From Neisseria sicca (GTDB taxonomy: Bacteria; Pseudomonadota; Gammaproteobacteria; Burkholderiales; Neisseriaceae): a DNA stretch of 32,000 bases. Under the pieces are notes generated by a model. It was not told the DNA's origin. It made no database searches and worked only from the letters and a program-made list of their open reading frames with translations. Shown one piece after another: positions 22,949 through 23,835 of this stretch (positions are counted from its first letter, which is position 1; every line of letters begins with the position of its first letter). The position numbers and the translations under genes were made by a program. The stretch spans positions 2,142,729 through 2,174,728 of the forward strand of contig NZ_CP059566.1 of assembly GCF_014054945.1 (NCBI RefSeq), written 5' to 3'.

Positions 22949-23057
22949 TTCGGGCAATCCTTTTACATATTAATCAAATGTTATTTAACAACATTTGTAT
23001 TCGTTGCCGACATGTCTGCCATATCGACAGATGTCATGATACCGCCTTAATTGATAA

Positions 23058-23065
23058 ATTATACA
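23058..23065 (-). promoter_or_regulatory. Candidate extended -10 (minus strand TGTATAAT) for the mini-ORF cluster
   Basis: The reverse complement of 23058-23065 is TGTATAAT, about 110 nt upstream of the ORF C ATG. No good -35 is present. Confidence 0.25.
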
Positions 23066-23138
23066 GTTTTTTTGTAAAGAAAATAGCGGTATAAATGCTA
23101 TAATGTAATTATTTTGATAAATTATTTTTAGTTTTGAA

Positions 23139-23176
23139 AATGACACCGATGTCTTGCAGAATGACACCGATGTCTT
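23139..23176. promoter_or_regulatory. Two identical 17-bp direct repeats (AATGACACCGATGTCTT) with 21-bp periodicity; candidate regulator binding site upstream of mini-ORF C
   Basis: The copies are at 23139-23155 and 23160-23176. They sit in an AT-rich non-coding stretch about 190-230 bp upstream of the mini-ORF C ATG. The repeat is certain; the regulatory role is inferred. Confidence 0.45.
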
Positions 23177-23835
23177 AGTTACAAGCCGATTACAAATTGT
23201 TTATTTTAGAATAGATGCTCTCGGATTTTTTGTTGCCAAATTACATCATTTTAGAAAATTTTAAAATTTTCCTTTTATTTTTCAATTAGATAAAAAACAA
23301 CACTTTTCCGCTTGGATTTTGGGTTTTTAGCCTCAGACTATAATCGCCATTGCCATTTTTTAAATGATCTATCCATTTTTGGCAAAAACAGGTCGTCTGA
23401 AACCAAAATCCCTGCCCGACAAACCGGAATCCGCTGTTTTCTTGTGAAATCGCTCATTAAATAAATCTCTCATCTGACGTTGCGGCATTGTTCCGCTTTG
23501 CCCAAAATGGGCGGTTTTTCCAAGCTGTCGGCGGTAAAAGCTCTGTTTGGACGTAACGAAACGTGCAAAACTTGTTTTCAGGTTTTCAGACGACCTGTTT
23601 GTATTTATGGGTTGGATGGGTCGTCTGAAAAGGCTTTCTGTTTCGTCGATGCCGTTCATGCCTCAATCAAATTGATTCAGATTGATTCAGTTCGACTGCT
23701 GCGCCCTGCGTTCTGAAATCCGCTGCTCGACATCGTTTATCAGCCATTCCGCCCTATCCTATGCAAGCGCGCAGCGAGCTTGCCCTGCAAACATGCTATA
23801 TTGCCGTTTTTGCTTTTTCCGTTTTCAGACGACCT

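Follow-up and report, generated by a model that had tools for sequence, protein, structure and literature searches.

We analyzed a 32,000-nucleotide stretch of the Neisseria sicca contig NZ_CP059566.1 (hereafter the window), in which two identical direct repeats lie upstream of three tandem minus-strand genes for tiny peptides (peptide genes C, B, and A). The repeats are probably the twin operators of the sole LacI-family factor of this genome, which would act in trans on the peptide genes. From the sequence evidence described below, we put the probability of this reading at roughly 0.78. The assignment is based on the internal symmetry of the repeats, their conservation across the genus, the presence of the same motif in front of the gene for the regulator, and the near-constant distance between the repeats and the peptide genes.

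The 17-mer AATGACACCGATGTCTT was found at 23139–23155 and 23160–23176, both in the sequence itself and with a repeat finder (family D8). The start-to-start distance is 21 bp, as described in the original prediction, which was made from the letters of the window. When up to three mismatches were allowed, these two copies were the only matches in the window; the chance expectation of the pair is 0.04 per window, and two matches were obtained in none of 100 shuffles. The core of the repeat, TGACACCGATGTCT, has only three intergenic copies in the whole 2.86-Mb genome, which belongs to a Neisseria of the mucosa/sicca type and carries 2906 copies of the uptake sequence AGGTCGTCTGAA. The repeats are located in an AT-rich region between rmuC (plus strand, from 23761) and the three peptide genes. 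The G+C content is 0.28–0.35 across 22850–23450, compared with a genome mean of 0.51. Only open reading frames of 36–60 amino acids are present in this region, and none of them appears conserved, as the alignment between species is rich in insertions and deletions. The strong AT bias and the lack of a credible open reading frame had both been noted earlier, and both descriptions hold.

Each repeat is itself a palindrome of even length with a central CG pair (half-sites TGACACC and GATGTCT), and its 16-bp form is symmetric at six of the eight positions. Changes between species are confined to two inner symmetric positions, giving the consensus ATGACA-YCGR-TGTC, and the center of the box occurs as CCGA, TCGG, TCGA, or CCGG, i.e., in both orientations. 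Therefore, the box is a two-fold symmetric element and not an asymmetric head-to-tail half-site. Such symmetry would fit the binding of one LacI-type dimer per box, and not of head-to-tail response-regulator monomers. A comparison of 1281 LacI-family regulons (Ravcheev et al. 2014, PMC4052901) showed that operators of this family are, as a rule, palindromes of even length with a CG pair at the center. The boxes of the window are of this kind and lie within the length range of approximately 14–22 bp taken from that study, and their spacing of 21 bp is a multiple of the helical repeat. According to the same study, approximately 20% of the regulated operons have more than one site, and the distances between the sites peak at 13, 22, and 32 bp. 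RafR and ScrR of Burkholderiales have double sites only, 21–22 bp apart, from which the authors infer an obligate cooperative binding of two dimers (PMC4052901).

The double operators of RafR (Enterobacterales) and ScrR (Burkholderiales) described there (PMC4052901) share the even palindrome with a central CG and the two-turn spacing with the boxes of the window. In those systems the regulator is autoregulated, as predicted here, and acts in trans, and the regulon comprises sugar uptake and catabolism, including sucrose genes. There are also differences. The targets here are tiny peptide genes instead of genes for sugar enzymes or transporters, the sites are located approximately 190–210 bp from the start codon instead of 30–140 bp, and the regulator does not reach the cut-off of any named equivalog. 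Autoregulation was reported for 72% of the LacI-family regulators (PMC4052901). At the peptide locus, the two operators have the ending TGTCT instead of the fully symmetric TGTCA; slightly off-consensus operators of this kind would fit a need for cooperative occupancy of the pair.

The boxes are conserved across the genus. A BLAST search with the region, a query that does not select for the boxes, returned matches from 12 other species of Neisseria; five loci are 94–98% identical and the remainder 71–74%. Not a single difference was seen in either box of the alignment, compared with an identity of approximately 70% in the flanks and free variation of the bases between the boxes. Exact pairs of TGACACCGATG words 6–14 bp apart are present in 44 of 98 genomes of the genus, once or twice in each; no pair was found in the 78 genomes searched from 24 other genera of the family, and the reversed control gave no hits. 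At 45 of the 46 twin sites the spacing is 21 bp, and at the other one (L032, genome G093) it is 20 bp; the sequence between the 11-mer search words varies freely; the two boxes are thus kept on the same face of the helix, as had been proposed from the window. The peptide-bearing genomes without the exact twin pattern have either a pair of boxes carrying one or two substitutions (G080, G086, G100, G115, and G126), a single operator left by a clean 21-bp deletion (G134, locus L098 on G134:C78), or a decayed box (G125). The deletion in G134 and the 20-bp spacing in G093 are natural variants that would be useful for studying cooperativity.

The genome encodes only one protein with a LacI-type helix-turn-helix, as judged by a single PF00356 match. 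This protein (345 amino acids, G000:C1:1676219-1677253) is encoded approximately 489 kb from the window, in agreement with the earlier expectation that control would be exerted in trans. It aligns over its full length with the models and structures of RbsR, PurR, CytR, CcpA, and GalR, and its scores are below every equivalog cut-off. The search of the genome for other copies of the repeat, which had been proposed along with the original prediction, gave a single intergenic copy of the core outside the window. This copy is a perfect palindrome, TGACATCGGTGTCA, located 54 bp upstream of the regulator gene in the spacer that this gene shares with the divergent pgi gene. The regulator gene is followed by the gene for a sucrose-type symporter of the GPH family.

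The link between the motif and the regulator extends far beyond this genome. In each of the 15 Neisseria lineages fetched, the 14-mer precedes the orthologous gene by 55–86 bp; these lineages include species that have no peptide genes and a protein identity of only 56–65%. Nearly all of the 53–60% identical orthologs in Rhodobacterales, Devosia, Cohaesibacter, and Thioclava also have it, at positions −34 to −139. Altogether, including Alphaproteobacteria, the motif was found upstream of the regulator gene in 79 of 80 loci, and at the lone exception only 14 bp of upstream sequence was available. The N-terminal DNA-reading helix is almost unchanged in the alphaproteobacterial orthologs (L177-L220); at these loci, the operator usually consists of two abutting copies 14 bp apart, and a gene for an ABC sugar-binding protein follows. 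Within the genus, every one of the 66 genomes that encode the regulator has the motif TGACAYCGRTGTC, compared with 2 of the 32 that do not encode it (a single hit each; the reversed control gave almost none), and the regulator is present in all 52 peptide-bearing genomes. The genomes behind these co-occurrence counts are related to one another, and the counts are therefore not independent. Independent evidence for the predicted pairing comes from two classes of Proteobacteria, in which the same gene and motif occur together.

Some further observations concern the regulator and its motif. Within gnd, the codons for MKGDIGVIG happen to contain the operator word (L133 2527 and L136 2518), which explains some of the single hits across the genus. 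The high identity of the regulator across classes hints at horizontal transfer. An FNR/CRP-type palindrome, TTGATAAAAATCAA, is located 21 bp from the regulator's own operator (G000:C1:1677342-1677355; L102 3043-3056); among the Neisseria lineages examined, most keep it as TTGAT-N4-(A/G)TCAA, suggesting an oxygen- or cyclic AMP-type control of the regulator gene.

At all loci, the boxes precede the first peptide gene by 184–208 bp. The distance to this gene is near-constant, and the far side of the boxes varies in both length and sequence. At seven loci, the twin boxes and the peptide genes occur without rmuC nearby. Therefore, the boxes belong with the peptide genes, and their designation as a conserved regulatory element of these genes can be maintained. 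The genes downstream of the boxes are two to four tandem genes for peptides of 34–35 amino acids, and a profile search with the peptides found them in 52 genomes, all within the genus Neisseria. Some species have a second copy of the whole module, i.e., twin operators, leader, and two to four peptide genes (L022 on G015:C3, L100 on G110:C10, and L101 in G143). The second module is at another genomic site without rmuC in G015 and G110, and both copies adjoin rmuC in G143. The module is AT-rich relative to the genome.

The repeats had been ascribed to a LytTR or winged-helix response regulator, with a parallel in the peptide and bacteriocin operons of Firmicutes. The organism is a Neisseria, and the parallel does not hold. 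Head-to-tail sites for such a regulator, which would activate the peptide promoter, were considered because a 21-bp start-to-start period of two direct repeats is typical of LytTR sites, as in the case of AgrA, ComE, BtsR, and YpdB. As at the sites of AgrA, ComE/BlpR, BtsR, and YpdB, two identical boxes 21 bp apart precede small-peptide genes here. The genome has one LytTR response regulator (G000:C1:1980452-1981180) and one unlinked LytS/AlgZ-type kinase (498910-499140). Of the 44 genomes that have exact twin boxes, 43 encode the regulator, and its gene is located approximately 4 kb from the boxes in four species. However, this proximity comes from the constant neighbor gluQ, and four unrelated genes lie between. 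The regulator also occurs in 36 genomes without the boxes, and three genomes that keep the twin boxes (G080, G086, and G092) gave no match to it at E ≤ 1e-20. Unlike LytTR sites, the boxes are internally palindromic, with an invertible center that head-to-tail monomers would not tolerate, and they track a LacI-family gene, which is preceded by the same motif across two classes of Proteobacteria. We regard a regulator of this class as very improbable. The LytTR regulator gene adjoins gluQ and coaD.

The boxes could also be true LacI-type operators that serve another target, either a plus-strand transcript beyond the distal operator (O2) or rmuC, which is the divergent neighbor in this genome and several others. 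The unusually long distance to the peptide start codon and the conserved TTACAA-N5-TTACAA and GTTGCA sequences on the far side of O2 would be in line with this. However, the boxes accompany the peptide genes at the loci that lack a nearby rmuC, it is the distance on the peptide side that is kept, and no conserved open reading frame, Rfam family, or terminator-bounded unit was found on the plus strand there; we consider such a target unlikely. A role in RNA, with the repeats forming two small hairpins in a long 5′ leader, is suggested by the 4-bp stem (GACA/TGTC) possible in each box, by the possible leader length of approximately 165 nt, and by a lineage-variable stem further downstream in the leader. 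The stems in the boxes are just 4 bp long, however, with invariant arms and no compensatory changes, and the motif occurs in either orientation in the promoter regions of unrelated genes as well as before the regulator gene. An Rfam search of the region gave nothing but weak chance matches to RcsR1 and a microRNA. RNAalifold applied to a MAFFT alignment of the leader found no supported structure: only the Zur-type palindrome described below and a weak stem were obtained, with a consensus energy of −4.2 kcal/mol, and the lineage-variable stem was not recovered. Hairpins of this kind have very little probability in our view. A functionless origin, by chance or selfish duplication or as a dispersed repeat, might be invoked for a region that is AT-rich, variable in length between lineages, and close to Correia and DUS (DNA uptake sequence) elements. 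With the chance expectation given above, perfect boxes within diverged flanks, and a spacing that is kept while the spacer sequence varies, this origin is negligible. The three intergenic copies of the core also set the repeat apart from the known dispersed repeats (Correia, DUS, and dRS3).

The reading as twin LacI-type operators leads to a possible mechanism. One dimer of the regulator would bind each 14–16-bp box, and the 21-bp (two-turn) spacing would place both dimers on one face of the DNA, allowing cooperative binding. The operator pair would thereby control the transcription of the minus-strand peptide genes C, B, and A. The likeliest mechanism would be repression by occlusion of a distal promoter (P2), whose −35 hexamer is inside the proximal operator (O1) and would be masked by the bound regulator; binding of a sugar effector to the regulator would relieve the repression. 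The arrangement of P2, with an A/T hexamer as the −10 element 15–16 nt after the end of O1, is the sole one that recurs at a fixed distance from O1, and it was in the top list in 5 of the 10 lineages scored. P2 of the window has the same hexamers; in a weight-matrix scan it is outside the window's own top-7 list, with a weak score in an AT-rich region. If P2 is used, the leader would be approximately 165 nt long. A candidate proximal promoter (P1) recurs at +151/+152 after O1 in 4 of the 10 lineages in the weight-matrix scan. TTGAAA-16-TAAAAT at 23285–23258 is the best promoter match in this genome and was rejected for its lack of conservation.

Several points weigh against the assignment of the repeats as operators of the peptide genes, in addition to the relatedness of the genomes behind the co-occurrence counts. 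Consensus and weight-matrix scans gave no strong sigma-70 promoter that overlaps the sites in all lineages. Because of this, activation from upstream, as exerted by some members of the family, or control of another transcript is possible. The sites are approximately 190–211 bp from the start codon, and the distance of 184–208 bp seen across the loci is likewise outside the range of 30–140 bp typical of the family. More than 75% of the LacI-family sites fall within this range of the start codon, which is a tendency and not a strict rule (PMC4052901). Finally, the sugar genes that carry the operator in related species are either missing from this genome (sucrose phosphorylase) or present without an operator (gluP and the porin homologue).

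In the related Neisseria, single operators are located immediately downstream of good −35/−10 pairs of sucrose phosphorylase genes (TIGR03852, 847 bits versus a cut-off of 334), and operators are also found upstream of gluP (a glucose/galactose transporter, above cut-off) and of a porin-like gene. A position just downstream of the −35/−10 pair is the usual one for repression, and by its predicted content this is a regulon for the utilization of sucrose or alpha-glucosides. In this genome, the regulon appears to be reduced to the peptide cluster, the operon of the regulator and the symporter, and perhaps pgi. The other members of the regulon suggest sucrose or a related alpha-glucoside as the effector; since the sugar targets of the relatives are absent or operator-less in this genome, the effector is a guess.

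A second, independent input may be provided by zinc. A Zur-box-like palindrome, TGTTATTTAACAACA, is located before the first start codon and is kept as TGTT(A/G)T-N3-A(C/T)AACA in all lineages. The neisserial Zur consensus is reportedly TGTTAT-N3-ATAACA; TGTTATTTAACAACA has one mismatch to it and is among 13 sites of the genome with no more than one mismatch. The pattern TGTT[AG]T-N3-A[CT]AACA has only five sites in the genome, namely four perfect ones and TGTTATTTAACAACA. The perfect boxes precede the genes for a TonB-dependent receptor, rpmE2-rpmJ2, adhP, and an aldehyde dehydrogenase, and a box with one mismatch precedes a DUF4198-like gene. These gene classes have been reported as zinc- and Zur-regulated in pathogenic Neisseria. 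Two FUR-family matches were found in the genome, which provides for a family member other than Fur. The short distance of TGTTATTTAACAACA from the start codon is shared with the boxes of rpmE2 and of the TonB-dependent receptor gene in this genome. In the mapped promoter of gonococcal tdfJ, the Zur box overlaps the −10 element; the corresponding arrangement here is a candidate −10 (TTAAAT) within the box and a −35-like hexamer separated from it by 16 nt on the upstream side, which recurs in several lineages. A difference from the known Zur systems is that the predicted target here is a small-peptide gene. Zinc probably controls the peptide genes, judging from the box and its company; the Zur-type box would then probably overlap the proximal promoter or block read-through when zinc is plentiful.

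A broader but rather doubtful proposal is that the leader of approximately 230 bp is a multi-input region, consisting of the twin sugar operators, the Zur box, and MisR/CpxR-like TGTAA repeats, for Neisseria-specific membrane peptides of 34–35 amino acids with an invariant AAxSLIGMxG helix that would modulate a transporter or envelope process. Such a region would link sugar supply to zinc starvation, and the regulator, which is shared with Rhodobacterales, would have been recruited to non-metabolic targets.

No description of the motif was found in full-text literature searches, which also covered LytTR and LacI in Neisseria. The arrangement as paired LacI-type operators is already known; the regulon, its presence in Neisseria, and the kind of target genes are new. 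No LacI-family factors were found in the Neisseriales genomes of the largest comparative study (PMC4052901), and the regulon predicted here in commensal Neisseria, from an order reported to be without such regulators, is seemingly undescribed. An orphan cis-element is now assigned a concrete regulator candidate. In addition, an unannotated family of tiny peptides, present in about half of the species of the genus, is apparently under the control of a sugar-responsive repressor and probably also linked to zinc starvation, which offers a handle on its function. The case also calls for caution in classification: direct repeats with a 21-bp period need not indicate a response regulator, and internal symmetry with a central CG points to paired LacI-type operators.

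The features of the region are listed in Table 1.

Table 1. Operators, candidate promoters, other sequence elements, and peptide genes in window coordinates.
Feature	Position	Strand	Description
Operator O1 (proximal to the peptide genes)	23141–23154		Core TGACACCGATGTCT; central CG 23147–23148; within repeat 23139–23155
Operator O2 (distal)	23162–23175		Core identical to O1; central CG 23168–23169; within repeat 23160–23176; 21 bp center-to-center from O1
Direct repeat TTACAA-N5-TTACAA	23179–23195		Conserved; 11-bp period; abuts O2; TTGTAA on the peptide strand
Candidate distal promoter P2	23119–23146	−	−35 GTGTCA = inner half of O1 (23146–23141); 16-nt spacer; −10 TAATTT (23124–23119)
Extended −10-like TGTATAAT	23058–23065	−	Partly conserved as TGTAT(A/T)AAT or TGTTTAAT; no −35 at the proper distance
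Conserved block TCATGATACCG	23034–23044		CGGTAT(C/G)AT on the peptide strand
Imperfect palindrome	23008–23038		Matches a leader stem varying between lineages
Candidate proximal promoter P1	22983–23010	−	−35 TCGGCA (23010–23005); −10 TTAAAT (22988–22983) inside the Zur-like box
Zur-box-like palindrome TGTTATTTAACAACA	22979–22993		15 bp; three-base center; 30 nt before the start codon of peptide C
Peptide gene C	22841–22948	−	35 amino acids, MKNLLTLAAASLIGMAGVTASASMVARNIETAAKK; first gene downstream of the operators; AGGA ribosome-binding site 22958–22961
Peptide gene B	22565–22675	−	34 or 36 amino acids
Peptide gene A	22336–22443	−	35 amino acids

Other elements between the operators and the peptide genes, and beyond O2, had been pointed out earlier or were noted in the alignment. 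The imperfect palindrome at 23008–23038, thought to share its core with the repeats, does exist; its core GACATGTC is lost in most of the close relatives, which read GACACGCC. As GACATGTC is not kept even there, its likeness to the repeats is due to chance. In the leader (23008–23034 and its homologues), a conserved CYGTCG is followed by a stem whose sequence changes between lineages and whose self-complementarity stays. A third operator half-site, ATGATACCG at 23036–23044, was tried and rejected; the likeness fades in other lineages, which read ATCATACCG. The overlapping block TCATGATACCG may be a −10 element (TATCAT/TATGAT). The extended −10 element TGTATAAT proposed on the minus strand is present and partly conserved, with no properly spaced −35 hexamer. 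The A/T tract AAAATTTTAAAATTTT, taken as a sign of curvature, was confirmed at 23255–23270; it is deleted in lineages of the subflava/flavescens type. The TTACAA-N5-TTACAA repeat, which has a TGTAA core on the peptide strand, resembles MisR/CpxR-type half-sites; a MisR consensus with a TGTAA core has been described (10.1101/2024.10.23.619888).

The start codons of the three peptide genes are at or near 22948, 22669, and 22443. Pfam and NCBIfam searches with the three peptides gave nothing significant, and a cluster look-up returned no names. The most strongly conserved part of the peptides is a hydrophobic AAxSLIGMxG segment. This points to a membrane helix that has its own role instead of serving merely as a signal peptide. 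The first peptide gene is frameshifted in several genomes of the subflava/flavescens type (L060 5252-5347 in G092; L101 in G143), and the downstream paralogs are intact.

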